Below are positions 7,139 to 64,000 of a stretch of 64,000 bases of DNA, one piece after another. Position numbers and translations under genes: made by a program. Source of the stretch: Mosigvirus mar005p1; sequence record OZ035759.1, one strand, 5' to 3'. The stretch's first letter is position 1; the number at the start of each line of letters is the position of its first letter. The notes under the pieces are model-generated. The model was not told the origin of the DNA. It made no database searches and was given only the letters and a program-made list of their open reading frames with translations.

Positions 7139-8907
7139 AACCTGAAGAAATGAAATCCATGCGTAGAAATAAGGTCATTGCCGATAATAAACCACAAAAA
7201 GTAGCTGCAACAGCAGCTACCGATTCATTAGAAGCATTGAATAACATTTCATCAAAACTAGACGATGTCCAAGCCGCGTCTGAACTCACATCACAAAGTG
7301 TAGAAGATAAAGGCAATGGAATTATTGAATCAATTGGAGACTTAAAGAATTCGACAGATAATACTGCTGAAGGCACAGAGCTTATCGCAGAAGTTATTGA
7401 AAAACAAACTGAAGTCACTAAAAGTATAAACGAAGTTTCTAGTGCAATAAGCTCTAAGTTAGACCGATTAGCTACATTATTAGAGCAAAAATTACAAACA
7501 TCTACCGCTATTCAAAATACAGGAAGCACCTCTCTTGAAGTAATTGAGAACGCTATACCTGTTAAAGTGGTTGAGAACGAAACTTCTGATGAGTTGTTTA
7601 AAGCATTACCTACACCTGAAAAGATTGATAATAAGCCAGACGAAGATTTCTTCCCAGTCCCGGTTCAAGAAAGTGCTAATTCTACTTCCGATTCTAAAGG
7701 TGGAATTAACTTTAAATTGAGCGATAAAATTGCAATGCTCACCAAAACAGTTCAAACCGGGTTTAATAAATCAATATCAATTTCAGACAGAATTGCTGGA
7801 ATGCTTTTCAAATACACTATAACGGCTGCTATTGAAGCAGCAAAAATGGCCGCACTTATTCTTGGTATTGTTATCGGTATTGATTTATTGATAGTCCATT
7901 TCAAATATTGGACAGACAAGTTCACTTCTGCCTGGGATTTATTTGATGAAAACTTTACTAAATTCTCCGATGAAGCTAAAGAGTGGGGTAAATTCTTAAG
8001 TGATATATTCACTTCTATTGACTCGATAAAACAAATGTGGGAAGCTGGAGACTGGGGTGGTTTAACCGTTGCTATCGTCAAAGGTGTAGGAACAGCATTA
8101 ATGAACTTAGGTGAACTAATTCAATTAGGAATGGCTAAACTCTCTGCGTCTATATTGCGTGCTATAGGTTTTGGCGATACCGCGGACGAAATAGAAGGAC
8201 GTGCTTTGGAAGGATTCCAAGAAACTACTGGGAATAAATTAAAGAAAGAAGACCAAGAGAAAGTCGCTAAATATCAAATGAAGCGTGACGATGGGGAATT
8301 AGGAACCGTTTCTAAAGGTCTTGATATGTTACAACGCGGCAAAACATTCGTTACTAACTGGGTTCGTGGTAATGACAATAAAGAAGAGTTTAGTACAAGC
8401 GATGAGCGTGCTGCGGAATCAGCAAAATTAAAAGAGTTACCTGAAGAGGAGCGTAAAGAGGCGTATATAAAAGCTAATGAAACTCGTGCGGCACTGGTTA
8501 GATTTGAGGATTATATCGATAAAATCGATATGACTAATCCGGAAAATGCTAAAAACGTCGAGAAGTCTTATGCTGATTTAAGTAAACTTATTAAAGACCC
8601 TGAACTTAATAAAACTCCTGTTGTTAAAAAGGAATTAGATGCTAGATTTGAAAAGCTAAATAATAAAATGGCTGAAGCCAAAAAGGCTCAGACAACAGTT
8701 AAGCCTGAATCTTCGTCTAAATCTCCGGAAGCAAAACAAGTTCAGTCAATAGAGAAAGGACGTGCTTCTGAATCTAAACAACAGCAACCGGTAGCGGCGA
8801 TTAGTAACACAAATAATGTCGTCAAAAAGAATACCGTAGTCCAGAATATGACCCCTGTAACAAGTACAACGGCTCCTGGAATTTTCCATGCCACCGGTGT
8901 TAATTAA
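7135..8907 (+). CDS. 29: baseplate hub / tail length determinant gp29
   Basis: 590 aa; T4 synteny and size. Confidence 0.9.
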   Translation: MKPEEMKSMRRNKVIADNKPQKVAATAATDSLEALNNISSKLDDVQAASELTSQSVEDKGNGIIESIGDLKNSTDNTAEGTELIAEVIEKQTEVTKSINEVSSAISSKLDRLATLLEQKLQTSTAIQNTGSTSLEVIENAIPVKVVENETSDELFKALPTPEKIDNKPDEDFFPVPVQESANSTSDSKGGINFKLSDKIAMLTKTVQTGFNKSISISDRIAGMLFKYTITAAIEAAKMAALILGIVIGIDLLIVHFKYWTDKFTSAWDLFDENFTKFSDEAKEWGKFLSDIFTSIDSIKQMWEAGDWGGLTVAIVKGVGTALMNLGELIQLGMAKLSASILRAIGFGDTADEIEGRALEGFQETTGNKLKKEDQEKVAKYQMKRDDGELGTVSKGLDMLQRGKTFVTNWVRGNDNKEEFSTSDERAAESAKLKELPEEERKEAYIKANETRAALVRFEDYIDKIDMTNPENAKNVEKSYADLSKLIKDPELNKTPVVKKELDARFEKLNNKMAEAKKAQTTVKPESSSKSPEAKQVQSIEKGRASESKQQQPVAAISNTNNVVKKNTVVQNMTPVTSTTAPGIFHATGVN

Positions 8908-24404: not shown

Positions 24405-24435
24405 ATTATACTCTGCTCCCGAGAGTTTGTAAACT
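24405..24435 (-). promoter_or_regulatory. T4 early promoter (GTTTACA N18 TATAAT, minus strand)
   Basis: plus attata 24405..24410, tgtaaac 24429..24435. Confidence 0.55.
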
Positions 24436-57145: not shown

Positions 57146-58246
57146 TTACGCTGTGAAGATTTTATCCCACATCGCAACAACTGCATCTCGATTATACTTC
57201 TTCCATACTGCTTCAGCACGTTTAACTCGAGCTTCGTATGTGTCAGTGAATTCTAATACAGCTTTTGTGTAAAGCGCAACTACTTCTTTCTTAGGAGTAG
57301 AGGAATCAATTTCTACACGCACAGTATCTGGGTCGTATTCGAATGTCGCATGAGGATAATCCTTAAAAACTAACTGGATTACAGGGACACCTTTAGAGAT
57401 GGCTTCAATAGAACTATTCTCTACCGTACCTGTGTCAGGACACGTATTAATAAGTGCTTTAGCTGTTTTAAGACGTTCCATGATTTCACTGTGTGGAGCA
57501 TCAATAATAACAGGATACTTAGCCGGTGGTGCCCATTTACTAGGACAGTATCCTACACCATTTTCGCCTAGTGCTTTAATTGCTTCAAGAGCAACATCAG
57601 TACGACGCATTTTAGTGTCATAACGTTGTGCACTAATAATCAGATCAGTCGCCGGAAGAACTTCAGGTTTCTCATTCAAACAAATAACCGGATAATCTTC
57701 GGCTTCAAACAACGGATTTGCTCGCCAATAATCATAATCAATTTTGTCAGTCAAACCTGAAGTCATATAACAATATTTACGTTCAAATTCACGGAAGGCT
57801 TTAGTAGGAGCATAACTCTTACCACCATTCTTATGAATTTGAATAGTCTGGTCCCAAATTTGAACAATGCCACGAGATACCGGTTCAAATGGTGTTGCCA
57901 TAAAATTCTTATGAACTTTAGAGAGACCTGCGTCTTTAATTGCCTGAACGGTTAGTTTAGTCGGTTCCATAGTAACAACAAAATCGTATTCATGGATGCC
58001 GGCTAGTTCAACAATCTTACGAGCCATAGTATAACTCATACCTAGACTGAATTTTGTCAGATGACCAACAGGATGATGATTAACTTTCCAATCACCAAAC
58101 GTGTCATTATCAAAGCCGATATAATCAATATCAGCACCGATGGACACAAGATATTTCAACACGTTCAAATGAACTGCTTCAAGACCACCTTGTACACGTT
58201 CTGGGTTAAATGGGACTGCGCGCGATGGGATAAACATAACTTTCAT
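57146..58246 (-). CDS. GT-B fold glycosyltransferase-like protein (GT4-like motifs); occupies the position of T4 gene 60/mobA
   Basis: 366 aa; N-terminal MKVMFIP...GG.E.V...L segment and C-terminal ENSSIEAISKGVPVI resembling the EX7E region of GT4 enzymes; motif-level inference only. Confidence 0.45.
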   Translation of the reverse strand: MKVMFIPSRAVPFNPERVQGGLEAVHLNVLKYLVSIGADIDYIGFDNDTFGDWKVNHHPVGHLTKFSLGMSYTMARKIVELAGIHEYDFVVTMEPTKLTVQAIKDAGLSKVHKNFMATPFEPVSRGIVQIWDQTIQIHKNGGKSYAPTKAFREFERKYCYMTSGLTDKIDYDYWRANPLFEAEDYPVICLNEKPEVLPATDLIISAQRYDTKMRRTDVALEAIKALGENGVGYCPSKWAPPAKYPVIIDAPHSEIMERLKTAKALINTCPDTGTVENSSIEAISKGVPVIQLVFKDYPHATFEYDPDTVRVEIDSSTPKKEVVALYTKAVLEFTDTYEARVKRAEAVWKKYNRDAVVAMWDKIFTA

Positions 58247-58271
58247 AATTAAGCCTTATTAAAATTAAAAT

Positions 58272-58289
58272 GAAGCTCCCGAAGGAGCT
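58272..58289 (-). terminator. UUCG-tetraloop hairpin (AAGCUCC UUCG GGAGCUU) immediately after gene 39 stop, followed by AU-rich tract
   Basis: perfect 7-bp stem. Confidence 0.5.
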
Positions 58290-60106
58290 TAGGACATCCA
58301 TTCTTTACGAAGTTCTGAATCATCACCCATCAACATTTCAAAAAGTTCTTTCCAATTTTCAGGAAGTTTAACTACGTCGTACACAGGGTTCTGAATCATT
58401 TCACGATATTCTGACTTTTCAAGGGAGCCTAATCCCTTGATGTATCGAATACTATGCTTAGGCAGTGTATCTTTAACTTCTTCATACTCAGCTACAGTAT
58501 AAAACCATTTTTGAGTTTTGCCAATTTGTGCAATAATTACAGGCGTTTTAACAAAGCGAATACGTCCTTGTTCAAACAATTCAGGCCAATTACTAAAGAA
58601 AGCAAGCAAAGCCGGATAGATACTTCCAAGACCGTCGTGATCTGCATCAGTCATAATTGCAATATTACGATAGTTCGTATTCTCTGCCTTTTCACCAAGA
58701 ATAAGACCTGTGATAGCACAGATATCAAAGAGCTCTTTGTTCTTCATCATATCAGCATATGACATACCCCAGCTATTCATCACCTTACCACGTAATGGGA
58801 ATCCGCCGTGTAGTTCACGGTCACGAACATCAATGAGATAACCAATTGCCGAATCACCTTCTGTTAAGAACAATGTCGTATCTGCATCTTTACCACATTG
58901 GTTAGCTTTAATATGCTTATGAACCTTAGCTTTAGTTGCCTTTTTAGCTGCTTTAGTTTCTGCAGCCTTTTCTGCTGCCAATTTACGAGCTAATGCTGCT
59001 TCAACAATAGGCATAATCAAGGCTTCGTTTTTAAGAAGCGCCTGAGCAATTTTCTTAGCATCTAATTGGATATGATTACGAATATCACCATACGTTGACG
59101 TTAAACGTTCTTTAGTCTGAGAATCAAAACGCATGTTGCTCATGTCTCTAATAAACATCAACATTGTGAGGCATTCTTTAACACGAGCTTTAGTGACTTC
59201 AATACCCTTATATTTCTTTTTAATACCCGGCAAAAGATGTTCGCAGATATCATCCATTACACATTCAACATGATGACCACCATTTTTAGTATGGATGTTA
59301 TTCACATAAGTTAAATGACGGAAGCCATCTGGTGATGTTGTGAATGCTATAGAGACTTTATCATTTTCTTGAATGATGTTATCTTCACCAAATTGTTTAG
59401 CAAATCGTTTAAAATTACCATCAACCTTTTTACCATTAAATGTGAACTTGATATCAGGATAAACGACTGCCAATGTTTGAAGTCGGTCTAAAGTAATATC
59501 TAAATAAATTTGAGATAAATTATGCTCTTCAAATGAAGCGAAATCAGGAGTGAAGATTACTTTAGTGCCTTTACCTTTAGATTTCTTAGAAGACCATGAT
59601 TTATTTTCCATTCCGTTTGAACAGTTAACAGTGATTTCATTTTCGCCATCTGACGTGATGCCTGTAAACAACGTAGAGAAGATATTAGTTAAACTACTCC
59701 CGACGCCGTTCATACCACCAGTCTTGCGTTCAGAGTCATCACCAAAGTTACCACCGGCCTTTGGAATAGTCCAGGCTGCTACAGGCCCAGGAATTTGTTC
59801 ACCTGTTTGGTCGGTAACTAAACCTTGAGGAATACCACGTCCGTTATCTTCCACCGAAACTTGATTATTTTTAATTTGCACATCAATTTTATTTGCAAAC
59901 TTAAACGATGTACGAATAGCTTCATCAACCGAGTTGTCAATAATCTCATCGATTAATTTAACCAGACCAGGAACATATTCAACTTGTTGATATTTACCAA
60001 ACAAAAAACGCTCGTGGGCTTCTTTAGCAGAAGAACCAATATACATACCACTACGTTTCTTAATATGTTCTACATCTGACAATACCTTAATTTCATTTTT
60101 AATCAT
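58289..60106 (-). CDS. 39: DNA topoisomerase II large subunit gp39, uninterrupted (covers T4 39 + 60)
   Basis: 605 aa; GyrB-like GHKL ATPase and TOPRIM segments in a single ORF. Confidence 0.9.
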   Translation of the reverse strand: MIKNEIKVLSDVEHIKKRSGMYIGSSAKEAHERFLFGKYQQVEYVPGLVKLIDEIIDNSVDEAIRTSFKFANKIDVQIKNNQVSVEDNGRGIPQGLVTDQTGEQIPGPVAAWTIPKAGGNFGDDSERKTGGMNGVGSSLTNIFSTLFTGITSDGENEITVNCSNGMENKSWSSKKSKGKGTKVIFTPDFASFEEHNLSQIYLDITLDRLQTLAVVYPDIKFTFNGKKVDGNFKRFAKQFGEDNIIQENDKVSIAFTTSPDGFRHLTYVNNIHTKNGGHHVECVMDDICEHLLPGIKKKYKGIEVTKARVKECLTMLMFIRDMSNMRFDSQTKERLTSTYGDIRNHIQLDAKKIAQALLKNEALIMPIVEAALARKLAAEKAAETKAAKKATKAKVHKHIKANQCGKDADTTLFLTEGDSAIGYLIDVRDRELHGGFPLRGKVMNSWGMSYADMMKNKELFDICAITGLILGEKAENTNYRNIAIMTDADHDGLGSIYPALLAFFSNWPELFEQGRIRFVKTPVIIAQIGKTQKWFYTVAEYEEVKDTLPKHSIRYIKGLGSLEKSEYREMIQNPVYDVVKLPENWKELFEMLMGDDSELRKEWMS

Positions 60107-60128
60107 GTTGTCTCCTCGTTATGAAGGT

Positions 60129-60153
60129 ATTCTATCATCCGAAATCTAAAGCA
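60129..60153 (-). promoter_or_regulatory. middle promoter (MotA box TGCTTTA, 12 nt, TAGAAT; minus strand) upstream of gene 39
   Basis: plus taaagca 60147..60153 and attcta 60129..60134. Confidence 0.45.
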
Positions 60154-60166
60154 AAAAGGGCCGAAG
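60151..60166 (-). terminator. rho-independent terminator (GGGC UUCG GCCC then UUUUUG) after ORF 60170..60595
   Basis: GC stem, UUCG loop, U-tract. Confidence 0.5.
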
Positions 60167-60169
60167 CCC

Positions 60170-60595
60170 TTATTTAAATTTAATTTTCTGAAGTGCATCA
60201 ATTGCAGCCAAACGCCCTTGTTCACTTTTAACTGTAATGACCACATCGCCTGATACGATCACCGAGCCATCAACAAATTCTATAGAGCCTTTTTTGAAAT
60301 CGACAGCTGTATCTGGTTCCTGAACTTCTTCAAAGAATTTAAATTCTGCACCATAAAGCAGAATATCACCTTGCATACTATGAATAGTTCGGCCATAATC
60401 GCCTACGGCTTCTACAGCAATAACCGAAACACCGTAACCAATCATCTCTTCCACAATAAAATCTTTGGACAATAAAGTAGTATGCAGATTAGTATTAAGA
60501 CGTTTACCAGTCGTATTAAGAATTCTCAAGAAATTATCTTCTTGACCTTTGATAATACGATATTTCTTACCAACTTCAAAACCTTTAAAAGCCAT
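60170..60595 (-). CDS. hypothetical protein (39.1 position)
   Basis: 141 aa. Confidence 0.5.
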   Translation of the reverse strand: MAFKGFEVGKKYRIIKGQEDNFLRILNTTGKRLNTNLHTTLLSKDFIVEEMIGYGVSVIAVEAVGDYGRTIHSMQGDILLYGAEFKFFEEVQEPDTAVDFKKGSIEFVDGSVIVSGDVVITVKSEQGRLAAIDALQKIKFK

Positions 60596-60597
60596 AA

Positions 60598-60777
60598 TTA
60601 ACCCTTTTTAAGTAAGTCGTAAAAACCACCGTTCACATGTTTAGGAGCAGAAACCCGACGAGTAGACAGACGATGACATTCAGGGCAAACATCGTTTTCT
60701 CGTTCAGAAATCCTTTTAATTTTTTCATATTCATGACCACAATCTTCAGATTGGCATTTATAGTCGTATAACGGCAT
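60598..60777 (-). CDS. zinc-ribbon protein, FmdB-like (MPLYDYKCQSEDCGHEYE...CPEC), 59 aa
   Basis: CxxxxC...CxxC pattern; below track cutoff; tightly packed between neighbours. Confidence 0.5.
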   Translation of the reverse strand: MPLYDYKCQSEDCGHEYEKIKRISERENDVCPECHRLSTRRVSAPKHVNGGFYDLLKKG

Positions 60778-60779
60778 TA

Positions 60780-61190
60780 TTATTCCTTAAAATGTGCTTT
60801 CAACATTTGATACAAAGACCATGCCTGGTCGTTATTTTTGATAGTAATCGTCATCACCGGAAATTCAGACAATTCATCAAGTTCTCCAGAGTCTTGCTCT
60901 TCAGACGCTTGATATGGATTTCCAACTTCGTCAAAGAACTCTGCTTCATTCGTGGAGAGCCAGATAAAGTTTTCATCAAGGATATCACCGCCTGCTGCGT
61001 ATCCAACCATGCCAGTAGATGTCACAATTTTAGTAGGACGACCAAGATGGTCAACATCTAATACTTTAAATGGTTCCATGCCAAGACGTCGTGCATAAAT
61101 CCCATTATCAGTGTGGTCTTTAATAAACTCTTCTTGGGCACGTTTATCTTTAAATTGGTACCATGAGTTAACGCGGAATTTATTAGCCAT
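60780..61190 (-). CDS. hypothetical acidic protein (start at MANKF, TAATG overlap with upstream stop)
   Basis: 136 aa. Confidence 0.5.
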
Positions 61191-61417
61191 TAGTAAGTTT
61201 CCTTCCAATAAGTTGTACCATTTTCAGTGATTTCACGGAAGATACCATAGATAGGCATTTCGTCACCGAGTTTTTCGTAAACGTAAACCACTTCGGTGTA
61301 GCATAAAAATCCGGTCCAGTTTTTCTGTACAACAACTAAATCAGGATTAAACAGAACATCTTCAAACTCATCGATGTTTGAATCAGTAGTTACATTTTTA
61401 ATGATTTGACGTTTCAT
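61190..61417 (-). CDS. hypothetical small protein (start moved to MKRQIIK with AAGAGGAGAA RBS; track start lay inside the promoter)
   Basis: 75 aa. Confidence 0.5.
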
Positions 61418-61445
61418 AATATTCTCCTCTTGTTTTGATAGGTCT

Positions 61446-61474
61446 ATAGTATCATAGACCATAGTTGTTGTACA
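61446..61474 (-). promoter_or_regulatory. T4 early promoter variant (TGTACA N17 TACTAT, minus strand)
   Basis: plus atagta 61446..61451, tgtaca 61469..61474. Confidence 0.45.
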
Positions 61475-61999
61475 TCATTTTAGCAAAATAAAATCAACTT
61501 GTTCTGCCAATGAACGTCTAAACATTAATTGACAACTTCCGAGGATGAAATCAGGTGCTTCATAGACCGCGATGTAGTATCCTTTAGCTTTCAAGAGTTC
61601 AACATCCACCTGGTCATCAAACCATGCATAAACCGCGTCAACACTTTCAAATCCAAAATAGAACCCTTGAGCCCAATCTTCACTCAATTCAAATGTGTGC
61701 TCAATTCTATGGTATCTTAAGATATTTTGTTCAAGGAGTTTGTCTTCATTTACTGTAGGACGATTAGGGACATTATAGTTGTCACCGTGATGGTAGAAGT
61801 TACCTGAGATTATTCCATGCTTATCAAGGAACTCCCATGTTTCTTCAGAGTTGTCGGTGCCCGACCAACCGTATGGCGAGCGAGGTTCTTTATTCCAAGA
61901 GGTTTCCCAAATTCTGACGGCTTTACCGTCTTCGATAGCAATTCCTGGTAATGATTCACGTTGAGTACAAAAACTACGTTCTACGCGGTAAACTAACAT
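61475..61999 (-). CDS. hypothetical protein
   Basis: 174 aa; GAGGAG RBS; early promoter upstream. Confidence 0.5.
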   Translation of the reverse strand: MLVYRVERSFCTQRESLPGIAIEDGKAVRIWETSWNKEPRSPYGWSGTDNSEETWEFLDKHGIISGNFYHHGDNYNVPNRPTVNEDKLLEQNILRYHRIEHTFELSEDWAQGFYFGFESVDAVYAWFDDQVDVELLKAKGYYIAVYEAPDFILGSCQLMFRRSLAEQVDFILLK

Positions 62000-62026
62000 A
62001 TTATTCTCCTCTGGTTGATATGGTTA

Positions 62027-62056
62027 TAATATCAAAACCAAAGGAGAAGTAAACAA
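62027..62056 (-). promoter_or_regulatory. T4 early promoter (GTTTAC N17 TATTAT, minus strand)
   Basis: plus ataata 62027..62032, gtaaaca 62050..62056. Confidence 0.5.
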
Positions 62057-62058
62057 CT

Positions 62059-62478
62059 TTATGCGAAAGCAGCTGGGCTATATTTTTTAATTTGGAATTC
62101 AGGAACTACCATGAACTGTCCAGCGAAAACGATGTTATAAAGCTTAACACCATCTTCTACCCAACGGTCGCTAATAAATCCGGCGATTTGCTTAGTTTTC
62201 CATGGCGTTCCATCAGTTGCCGCAGCAATAGTGAATTCATGGTCTTTTTCAACAGAAACTGATCTGCATAGTCCCCATTTGAACGCTTTTTCTTCTGGTT
62301 CAATGAACTGGCTTGAGACGTAGCCAATATTACCATTAGCATCACGAACTTTAACTTGGTTACGACCAAAAACCGGATCACTCACAGAAAGAACTTCAAC
62401 CAACTTCCCGGCAACTTTAGAGCGAGAAGCAACAGATACATATACGTAATCACCTGTAGAGAGATTTACAATATTCAT
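62059..62478 (-). CDS. paralog A of tandem family (C-terminal GFISDRWVEDGVKLYNIVFAGQFMVVP motif)
   Basis: 139 aa; AAGGA RBS. Confidence 0.55.
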   Translation of the reverse strand: MNIVNLSTGDYVYVSVASRSKVAGKLVEVLSVSDPVFGRNQVKVRDANGNIGYVSSQFIEPEEKAFKWGLCRSVSVEKDHEFTIAAATDGTPWKTKQIAGFISDRWVEDGVKLYNIVFAGQFMVVPEFQIKKYSPAAFA

Positions 62479-62487
62479 AATAATTCC

Positions 62488-62952
62488 TTAAGCTTTACGA
62501 GGAGACACATAGCGAGTGATTTCAGATTCTTTAACAACTCGGAAGTCACCTAAGAATACGATATTGTATAACTTTTCACCATCTTCAACCCATTGGTCAC
62601 TAATGAAGCCACACATAGTATCAGTTTTGCTTGGATAACCGTATTCATCGATGAAGTCAAATTCTTTATCAGTCTGGAATTCAACACCTTTACACAAGGC
62701 CCATTTGAACTGTGTAGTAGGCTCAACGATATCGCTTGAAGCAAAGTGGGCACTTACACGAGTTTCCAAGAATTTAGGACTTACATAGGCGAACTGAGTT
62801 TCAGTTTTTCCAGAACTAGGAATGATTCGAACTTTAACTTCTTTAATACGGCCCATGCCATTAGTACGAAGTCCTACTACTTCAACCAGCTTTCCTGCAG
62901 CTTTAGAACGAGACGCTGTCGATACACGTTTAATTTCACCAATATTAATCAT
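62488..62952 (-). CDS. paralog B of tandem family (start at MINIGEIK; track ORF began at 63015)
   Basis: 154 aa; N-terminal VSTASRSKAAGKLVEV and C-terminal GFISDQWVEDGEKLYNIVFLGDFRVV shared with paralog A. Confidence 0.55.
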   Translation of the reverse strand: MINIGEIKRVSTASRSKAAGKLVEVVGLRTNGMGRIKEVKVRIIPSSGKTETQFAYVSPKFLETRVSAHFASSDIVEPTTQFKWALCKGVEFQTDKEFDFIDEYGYPSKTDTMCGFISDQWVEDGEKLYNIVFLGDFRVVKESEITRYVSPRKA

Positions 62953-62983
62953 ATTTTTTCTCTCTTTGTTTAAATTGAATTCA

Positions 62984-63013
62984 TTATACTCCATCCATCC
63001 TTGGATGTACAAC
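62984..63013 (-). promoter_or_regulatory. T4 early promoter (TTGTACA N17 TATAAT, minus strand)
   Basis: plus attata 62984..62989, tgtacaa 63007..63013. Confidence 0.5.
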
Positions 63014-63014
63014 A

Positions 63015-63509
63015 TTAATTTAGAATATTAACTACTGCACTACGTGGAACAACGCTAAAATCACCGGCATGAACAACGTTCAGAAGTTCAACCCCATCTT
63101 CAATCCACTGATCAGTTACCCATCCACTCACTGGACCTGCGAACGGACGACGAATTGAAACAGCTTTACACAACAAATCAGTAGGCTCAATAGGCTTAAT
63201 CAGAGTACCGTACATACAAGCGATATCCATATCAATACAGATGTCTTTAACGGGTTCTACTTCTTCAACCAACAGTTCAAAGTCGGTGCTTGGAAGGGCG
63301 GTAGTAGAAATTGTACCGTATGAATTTTTAATTTCTAAGAATAACCAAGGGCCTTCAGCTTGTTTGATGAAGTTAACAATAGTGAAACTATTACCTTGAG
63401 TGGCACCTAAAATTTCACAAAACTTTTCATAAGCTCGCACTGAAGCACCGTACCAGTTGATTTGTTTTTCGTCTTTCAGGATGTAAGTAGCCGTAGTATT
63501 GATATTCAT
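63015..63509 (-). CDS. paralog C of tandem family (C-terminal WVTDQWIEDGVELLNVVHAGDFSVVP)
   Basis: 164 aa. Confidence 0.55.
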   Translation of the reverse strand: MNINTTATYILKDEKQINWYGASVRAYEKFCEILGATQGNSFTIVNFIKQAEGPWLFLEIKNSYGTISTTALPSTDFELLVEEVEPVKDICIDMDIACMYGTLIKPIEPTDLLCKAVSIRRPFAGPVSGWVTDQWIEDGVELLNVVHAGDFSVVPRSAVVNILN

Positions 63510-63542
63510 AATGTTTTTTCCTGTTTGGTTAAGATAGAAAGA

Positions 63543-63572
63543 TTATACTCCAACCATCCTTGGTTGTAAACT
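63543..63572 (-). promoter_or_regulatory. T4 early promoter (GTTTACA N17 TATAAT, minus strand)
   Basis: plus attata 63543..63548, tgtaaac 63566..63572. Confidence 0.5.
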
Positions 63573-63576
63573 GATT

Positions 63577-64000
63577 TTATCGCTGTTTTACACTTAACGG
63601 GTCAGGATTCTCAGGGACATCTTCAAGGCCAAGCGCATAACGCTGAGCATATTTTAACATCAAAATATCTTTAGCACAATCATGAATACTATCATGGGCA
63701 ACGAATCCTTTTAGCGTACCCATCGGTAATGGACACATACTTAATCCTCGTGTCAACGAGTAAGCTTCGATTGCCGTACGAATATCACGTTGAGCCCAGA
63801 ATTTAACCGGTTCTAATTTATCAGTATCAATATCTGGTTCAAGAACACCTTCATCACGATAGAGGTCACGAATCAAATCGACCAAGATCGGGAAGTCAAA
63901 GCTCATACCACGGCACCACATCTGTGATTTCCATTGGTCAACTTTATTAGCTCGGCAATAGTCTAAAAAGATTTTAATGCCTTCAAGCGTAGTGACATCG
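63577..64000 (-). CDS. dexA: exonuclease A (DEDDh 3'-5' exonuclease), C-terminal part; gene start lies beyond the window end
   Basis: open frame to window edge; HDSIHD exonuclease motif; T4 synteny. Confidence 0.75.
   Translation of the reverse strand, partial: DVTTLEGIKIFLDYCRANKVDQWKSQMWCRGMSFDFPILVDLIRDLYRDEGVLEPDIDTDKLEPVKFWAQRDIRTAIEAYSLTRGLSMCPLPMGTLKGFVAHDSIHDCAKDILMLKYAQRYALGLEDVPENPDPLSVKQR

Follow-up and report, generated by a model that had tools for sequence, protein, structure and literature searches.

This analysis concerns three adjacent open reading frames (ORFs) on the minus strand of Mosigvirus mar005p1 (sequence record OZ035759.1), near the end of a stretch of 64,000 nucleotides that we call the window. 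A sequence-only reading of the window had described these ORFs, coding for 139, 154 and 164 residues, as a tandem triplet of paralogous genes, each with its own early promoter. All three are real, conserved genes. They are best explained as a whole as the motB.1–motB–motB' cluster of an RB69-like T-even phage, which lies between dexA and motB.2/cef in the dispensable early region, a reading to which we give a probability of about 0.85.

The window comes from a Mosigvirus, i.e. an RB69-like T-even phage. In megablast searches, the region is 98.9% identical to that of phage moskry, with the same gene order, and >140 database records cover at least 80% of the query region. In the matching records, the labels given to the three ORFs are 'transcriptional regulator', 'modifier of transcription' and 'MotB-like protein', and those at the matching positions of RB69 are motB.1, motB and MotB-like gene. 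As is typical of the MotB family, they are found in the early dexA–cef region of a Tevenvirinae genome (Table 1).

All three proteins pass the curated gathering score of Pfam PF17613 (motB), which is 25 bits. The 154-residue protein scores 139.3 bits (E=1.4e-40, profile positions 2–157 of 162), matches phrog_1671 with E=9.4e-66 and has 49% identity to T4 MotB in an alignment that starts at residue 1 (E=2.7e-45). The 139-residue protein scores 75.6 bits (E=5.3e-21), matches phrog_1671 with E=6.6e-51 and has 37% identity to T4 MotB. Only the C-terminal part of the 164-residue protein, residues 83–159, matches PF17613 (36.2 bits). This protein matches phrog_2333 across its full length (E=1.3e-82), and in a BLASTP search against the T4 proteins it has 38% identity to MotB.1 (E=3e-27). 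NCBIfam has no model for any of these proteins.

The cluster is not new, because Patterson-West et al. 2021 (PMC7827196, sections 3.2 and 4) have already described a conserved C-terminal domain common to MotB and MotB.1, whose N-terminal domains differ, as well as the arrangement in RB69, with two motB genes, one motB.1 gene and one 29-residue peptide (section 3.2). They also proposed that one of motB and motB.1 may derive from duplication of the other, and found several phages with more than one copy. Thus, recognizing the three genes is a correct rediscovery of an annotated, published family and arrangement, and matters little in itself.

Table 1. Features of the motB cluster and of its surroundings (positions in the window)
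Feature	Position	Strand	Basis
motB.1 homologue, 164 residues	63015..63509	minus	phrog_2333, PF17613, similarity to T4 MotB.1, RB69 annotation
motB orthologue, 154 residues	62488..62952	minus	PF17613, phrog_1671, similarity to T4 MotB
motB', 139 residues	62059..62478	minus	PF17613, phrog_1671, 43% identity to 154-residue protein
Segment for shared C-terminal domain in motB.1	63018..63188	minus	alignment A5
Segment for shared C-terminal domain in motB	62491..62715	minus	alignment A5; AlphaFold2 confidence
Segment for shared C-terminal domain in motB'	62062..62289	minus	alignment A5
Early-type (sigma-70) promoter-like site before motB.1	63542..63570	minus	TTTACA-17 nt-TATAAT, 11/12 consensus matches
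Early-type (sigma-70) promoter-like site before motB	62983..63011	minus	TGTACA-17 nt-TATAAT, 10/12 consensus matches
dexA, 3' part	to 63577	minus	
motB.2 homologue, 174 residues	61475-61999	minus	34% identity to T4 MotB.2, E=3e-15
goF	60780-61208	minus	phrog_622, E=2e-38
141-residue gene at 39.1 position	60170-60595	minus	phrog_622, E=9e-22
Gene 39 topoisomerase		minus	last in minus-strand run, after 141-residue ORF at 39.1 position

Domain architecture of the three proteins

The 139- and 154-residue proteins align over nearly their full lengths (BLASTP E=9e-33, 43% identity over 148 columns), whereas only the last ~40–57 residues of the 164-residue protein align with the other two (E=5e-11 with the 139-residue and E=2e-10 with the 154-residue protein). 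Based on these E-values and on the PF17613 cut-off passed by all three, the motifs that they share reflect homology and not chance. Pairwise alignment was the check proposed with the initial description, which non-significant motifs would have overturned, and the alignments are significant.

The C-terminal block of that description is indeed present in all three proteins, in the form G(F/W)(I/V)(S/T)D(Q/R)W(V/I)EDGx(K/E)L(Y/L)N(I/V)V. Alignment A5 of the three C-terminal domains has 16 invariant columns, and within the shared motif the residues W, D, E, G, L, N and V are invariant. The N-terminal block VSxASRSKxAGKLVEV was rightly assigned to two proteins only, those of 139 and 154 residues. 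These two have the full-length two-domain plan, with a KOW-like domain that carries the VSxxSRSKAAGKLVEV block followed by the C-terminal domain, unlike the 164-residue protein. Judging by their sequences, the 154- and 139-residue genes are full-length MotB paralogues that stem from an old tandem duplication, as indicated by their 43% identity. The 164-residue gene combines an N-terminal domain unrelated in sequence with the same ~55-residue C-terminal domain via a disordered linker, and is a product of domain shuffling rather than whole-gene duplication. The paralogous triplet thus holds for the first two genes over their full lengths and for the third over its C-terminal ~55 residues only. 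Rather than one member of a simple diversified triplication, MotB.1 is a domain-shuffled relative whose different N-terminal domain is described as LSm-like (PMC12152347).

The 154-residue protein is composed of a basic KOW/SH3-like N-terminal domain (residues 1–62), a disordered linker (residues 66–79) and the C-terminal domain (residues 80–154). Its AlphaFold2 model has a mean predicted local distance difference test (pLDDT) score of 82.2, with values >90 for residues 80–150 and low confidence for linker residues 66–79. The N-terminal domain is strongly basic, with an isoelectric point (pI) of 10.7 and a net charge of +8, and the C-terminal domain is acidic (pI 4.7). Its 49% identity to T4 MotB (NP_049626; PF17613) holds over an end-to-end alignment. 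Like that protein, it has a KOW-like N-terminal domain followed by the C-terminal domain, and is encoded in the early region behind a promoter-like site at the same place. It differs from T4 MotB in being eight residues shorter and in its more acidic C-terminal domain (pI 4.7 versus 7.9). A search of the PDB sequences with the 154-residue protein returned no meaningful match (best E=0.52).

The ORF found mechanically for this gene has 175 codons and starts at 63015, and many database records give motB 172–175 residues from an ATG that overlaps the motB.1 stop codon (TAATG). The extra 21 codons (window 62953-63015, minus strand) correspond to promoter and leader read as protein (MLYIQGWMEYNEFNLNKERKN). 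We rejected the 175-residue ORF as the true product and preferred the 154-residue one, because homology with T4 MotB extends from the internal ATG, residue 1 of the shorter protein, onwards, and because the -10 box lies downstream of the ATG at 63015.

The 139-residue protein has the same two-domain plan as MotB. It is near neutral, including its N-terminal domain, and its C-terminal domain has a pI of 8.8. Its orthologues are RB69 NP_861700 and RB51 ORF010c, both labelled 'MotB-like', in a class with 86–100% identity; they are alike in length and in position directly after motB and differ in nothing notable. RB51, a Tequatrovirus, has the same motB.1–motB–motB' run. Orthologues of motB' with at least 80% identity are present in 207 of 777 phage records, and no record falls between 60 and 80%. 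Based on this gap, motB' is a discrete, maintained paralogue, carried by roughly one in four of the phages that have MotB, both in Mosigvirus and in part of Tequatrovirus. That the 139-residue copy might be a decaying, functionless duplicate is suggested by its being shorter than MotB, by its lack of a promoter of its own and by the loss of much of the basic charge of its N-terminal domain. Nevertheless, the ORF is intact in essentially all of the 207 records, at 84–100% identity and in two genera, which makes decay highly improbable, and the copy retains the invariant residues of the C-terminal motif.

The 164-residue protein has a beta-rich N-terminal domain (residues 1–82), a disordered linker (residues 86–106) and a MotB-type C-terminal domain (residues ~108–164). 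Its AlphaFold2 model has a mean pLDDT of 79.5, about 90 in the C-terminal domain, with low confidence for linker residues 86–106. In the models of both the 164- and the 154-residue proteins, two confident beta domains thus flank a linker of low pLDDT. Both domains of MotB.1 are acidic (pI ~4.5). The protein has the hallmark of the MotB.1 group, a core PTDLLCKAV...GWVTDQWIEDGVELLNVVHAG fused to a non-KOW N-terminal domain, with 22 of the 22 invariant columns of alignment A2. This group is the "category 2" of Patterson-West 2021 (PMC7827196). T4 MotB.1 (UniProt P39415; phrog_2333) is alike in the type of N-terminal domain, the C-terminal motif and the position of its gene directly upstream of motB. 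The window gene differs by a linker insert of ~21 residues (ICIDMDIACMYGTLIKP), by its own promoter-like site and by following dexA directly, whereas the T4 gene follows motB.2 without a promoter. A sub-threshold Y_RNA hit within the 164-residue coding sequence (26.8 bits versus a gathering score of 38; Rfam scan of 58000-64000, E≤1) was taken as chance.

The linker of the 164-residue protein contains a motif, (I/V)D(M/F/T)D(I/V)(A/E)x(M/T)Y(G/L)T(L/P)IKP, at window 63189-63239 (residues 91–107). The same motif is found at the extreme N-terminus of relatives of ~180 and ~250 residues and in the linker of KOW-type relatives (proteins P0029-P0057 and P0260-P0269 of our set). T4 MotB.1 and both MotB copies are devoid of it. 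It resembles a mobile short linear motif.

The shared C-terminal domain is modelled as an SH3-like barrel, acidic in two of the three proteins. This module is always located at the C-terminus, attached to several different N-terminal domains: the T4 type (143–145 residues), the Mosigvirus/RB51 type (164–169 residues), forms of ~180 and ~250 residues, and the KOW type. It is 76–88% conserved among MotB.1-type proteins with different N-terminal domains. In our phage collection, 771 records have a tblastn match to MotB and 740 have one to the MotB.1-type C-terminal domain. A search of 1.84 billion representative proteins with the C-terminal profile returned only 29 clusters, the credible matches of which are all small MotB-family proteins, with no distant relative that would hint at a function. 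The module is thus narrow and phage-restricted. Three long proteins with 6–7 matching stretches in the same search look like repeat noise and were discarded. We also set aside a profile–profile match between alignments A2 and A3 (E=6.7e-30), as the hybrid proteins P0058 and P0074 are in both alignments and inflate the score.

Chimeras between the two MotB copies were found as well. Proteins P0148, P0149 and P0151 combine an N-terminal domain of the MotB type with a C-terminal domain of the motB' type, and on contig L009 the chimera (1373-1894) is the sole motB gene. The latter case suggests deletion by recombination between the tandem paralogues.

Frameshifts in the T4 and RB69 records of motB.1

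Comparison of the motB.1 genes revealed that the T4 reference (NC_000866.4 / AF158101.6) has one extra G (ATTGGAAGATGG versus ATTGAAGATGG), at about 3805-3806 of contig L003 (NC_000866.4; record position ~7304-7305), as seen by alignment with contigs L004, L007 and L008. The reference ORF consequently ends at 119 residues within the conserved motif, reading GWVTDQWI followed by GRWR and a stop codon where the full motif is GWVTDQWIEDG. The downstream frame still encodes EDGVELLNVVHAGEYSVVPRSAVVAILN. Thirteen other records (11 T4/T4T records, RB55 and RB59) have no extra G, a 211-nt query from the reference being matched over 210 nt. The three records checked directly encode a MotB.1 of 143 residues with the full C-terminal domain. 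This protein is annotated in T4T (HM137666) and MT984581, and in T4 "wild" (KJ477684) the ORF translates to 143 residues and is unannotated. The 143-residue MotB.1 (protein P0011) is found on 256 contigs.

The UniProt entry P39415 is the 119-residue, 13.8-kDa form. Kim et al. 2025 (PMC12152347) refer to NC_000866.4 and to a monomer of 13.8 kDa, with no mention of a frameshift; their MotB.1 study apparently used the truncated form. These observations are of practical value for those who work on T4 early genes, since the truncation of the reference MotB.1 entry falls within its most conserved motif. The 143-residue protein is the one to use in MotB.1 experiments and structure modelling.

In RB69 (NC_004928, contig L005 3877-4373), motB.1 is split into ORFs of 132 and 29 residues by two single-base insertions relative to the window. 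As these insertions split it off, the 29-residue "category 3" peptide of Patterson-West 2021 is the C-terminal tail of a frameshifted motB.1, and the separate class for this peptide is an artefact of the frameshifts in that record. The split itself reflects either sequencing errors or a pseudogene in that isolate.

Possible functions of the MotB-family proteins

The function of the 154-residue protein can be proposed by orthology with T4 MotB. The latter is an abundant early protein that is toxic on expression and whose presence doubles the burst size. It binds tightly, with no sequence specificity, to both host DNA and modified T4 DNA, co-purifies with H-NS and StpA in a DNA-dependent manner, and alters the DNase I footprints of H-NS. 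It up-regulates 75 host genes, about a third of which are H-NS-regulated, and affects the T4 transcriptome little (PMC6070864; PMC7827196). The 154-residue orthologue would likewise be made early and in abundance, coat DNA irrespective of its sequence, re-pattern H-NS and StpA on it, de-repress part of the H-NS regulon and raise phage yield. In this proposed target, relief or re-patterning of H-NS on DNA, it resembles the H-NS antagonists T7 gp5.5 and T4 Arn (PMC7827196). However, those two bind H-NS directly, whereas MotB was observed together with H-NS only where DNA was there too, and neither is related to MotB in sequence or fold.

Given the basic N-terminal and acidic C-terminal domains of the 154-residue protein, DNA binding would take place mainly in the KOW-like N-terminal domain. 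The C-terminal SH3-like barrel is more likely a common protein-contact or oligomerization module for different N-terminal domains. The N-terminal domain of the 139-residue copy is near neutral, and MotB.1 is acidic along its whole length. We therefore expect these two to bind nucleic acids with an affinity other than that of MotB and to be functionally diverged rather than redundant. This charge split between domains is a simple, testable proposal as to which half of MotB binds DNA.

Several points weigh against this picture. The argument for N-terminal DNA binding is one of charge, and the C-terminal domains of the 139-residue copy (pI 8.8) and of T4 MotB (pI 7.9) are not acidic. The T4 authors assign the C-terminal domain of MotB to the OB-fold, which might itself bind DNA. 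They could not show a DNA-independent contact between MotB and H-NS, and the knock-down of motB barely shifted the T4 transcriptome (PMC7827196, PMC6070864). Furthermore, the function in Mosigvirus is carried over from an orthologue with 49% identity, and both promoters of the cluster are consensus matches. A less probable reading is that the shared C-terminal domain is the nucleic-acid-binding module, of the cold-shock-type OB-fold, and that all three proteins are DNA binders with differing accessory N-terminal domains.

An RNA-related role has also been considered for MotB.1. According to Kim et al. 2025 (PMC12152347), its N-terminal domain has an LSm-like fold, with a five-stranded bent beta-sheet common to GoF and Frd.2. 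Both goF and a paralogue of it are found nearby in the window. GoF and Frd.2 differ from MotB.1 in being devoid of the MotB-type C-terminal domain. Comparison of the MotB.1 family profile with GoF of the window was not significant (hhalign probability 1.4%), and the link of MotB.1 to GoF and the LSm-like fold is thus taken from the literature. MotB.1, and perhaps the MotB copies, might act on RNA through their LSm-like and KOW-like barrels, e.g. in mRNA stability or in the coupling of transcription and translation. We consider this unlikely: beyond the profile comparison, MotB.1 is acidic and had little effect in an RNA reporter assay (PMC12152347), although the protein in that assay was apparently the truncated 13.8-kDa form.

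The initial description had further taken tandem, diversified early genes as typical of host-takeover or anti-defence factors. The first half fits, since these are early-region genes of T-even phages and T4 MotB is a host-takeover-type factor. The second would make the cluster an anti-defence locus in which each paralogue neutralizes a different variant of a host defence or xenogeneic-silencing protein. In line with this, the genes lie in a dispensable early region, their copy number is two or three between phages, the N-terminal domains are swapped, chimeric motB genes show ongoing recombination, and H-NS is regarded as a defence against foreign DNA (PMC7827196, discussion). Nevertheless, the genes are not known to counter any defence system or to have anti-defence activity, and MotB/H-NS contact was not found without DNA (PMC7827196). 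Amber and deletion mutants of T4 motB.1 had no phenotype under laboratory conditions (PMC12152347). In addition, the paralogue classes are well conserved (at least 80% identity within a class) and not hypervariable like typical arms-race loci. An anti-defence role is therefore improbable.

To return to the C-terminal barrel as a protein-contact module, a broader proposal can be put forward as a rather doubtful one. The ~55-residue barrel may be a shared docking or hetero-oligomerization module, not a DNA binder, that recruits N-terminal effectors (the basic KOW-like and LSm-like types and two or more further ones) to a common partner or gathers them into mixed assemblies. In that case, the proteins of the cluster would act as one set on the nucleoid, and the published negative results with MotB.1 would come in part from the reference-derived form, which lacks the last three strands of the module.

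Promoter-like sites and gene order

The claim that each gene has its own early promoter does not hold for all three. Two sites match the sequence of T-even early promoters, with a (G)TTTAC-type -35 box, a spacer of ~17 nt and a TATAAT -10 box upstream of an early gene. They are the two best sigma-70-like sites in 58000-64000, the one preceding motB.1 being the best. As initially described, the promoter–leader cassettes before these two genes are near-identical. The 22-nt core of spacer and -10 box (63542-63563 in the motB.1 copy) differs by one base between the sites and occurs twice in 64 kb, with no copies expected, and the cassettes are 76% identical across 55 nt in register from the -35 box to the start codon. 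RB69 has the same pair of sites, and the record of phage SA79RD marks the one before motB.1 as a promoter. In T4 and RB51, a promoter-like site with another spacer is found at the same place before motB.

By contrast, no promoter-like site precedes the 139-residue gene in a sigma-70-like scan of the last 6 kb. Its start codon lies 9 nt past the motB stop codon, behind a Shine-Dalgarno-like AAGGA. Based on these two features, motB' is most likely co-transcribed with motB. Host RNA polymerase would thus probably transcribe the cluster from the two early-type sites, with motB' carried on the motB transcript.

A run of minus-strand genes fills the last 4 kb of the window, and the order of transcription is dexA, motB.1, motB, motB', motB.2, cef, goF, 39.2, 39.1 and 39. 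Gene order differs between lineages: it is dexA–motB.2–motB.1–motB(–motB') in T4 and RB51 and dexA–motB.1–motB–motB'–motB.2 in the window and RB69, so that motB.2 lies upstream of motB.1 in the former (contigs L003 4162-4662 and L006 2685-3188) and downstream of the motB genes in the latter. In both T4 and the window, motB.2 has a similar promoter-like site and leader, as if it had moved as a promoter–gene cassette.

The spacer between motB' and motB.2 harbours a strong predicted hairpin (window 62004-62048, minus strand; -22.4 kcal/mol, z=-4.85), annotated as a terminator in one phage record. Its 3' arm pairs with GAGGAG, the ribosome-binding site of motB.2, and the loop contains the -10 box of a promoter-like site, TTTACT-16-TATTAT, at 62026-62053. 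The ribosome-binding site of motB.2 would be masked in read-through transcripts and not in those initiated at this promoter.

The gene goF and the 141-residue gene at the 39.1 position are a second pair of paralogues within the same early block, 2–3 kb from the motB cluster. The 141-residue protein also has a weak match to the N-terminal part of phrog_2333, the MotB.1 family (E=5.9e-4). Lastly, another early-type promoter-like site is present at window 24405-24433 on the minus strand (TTTACAAACTCTCGGGAGCAGAGTATAAT). It is close in sequence to the T4 site before motB (GTTTACAAACTCTTGGGACCAGAGTATAAT) and has a short inverted repeat in its spacer.

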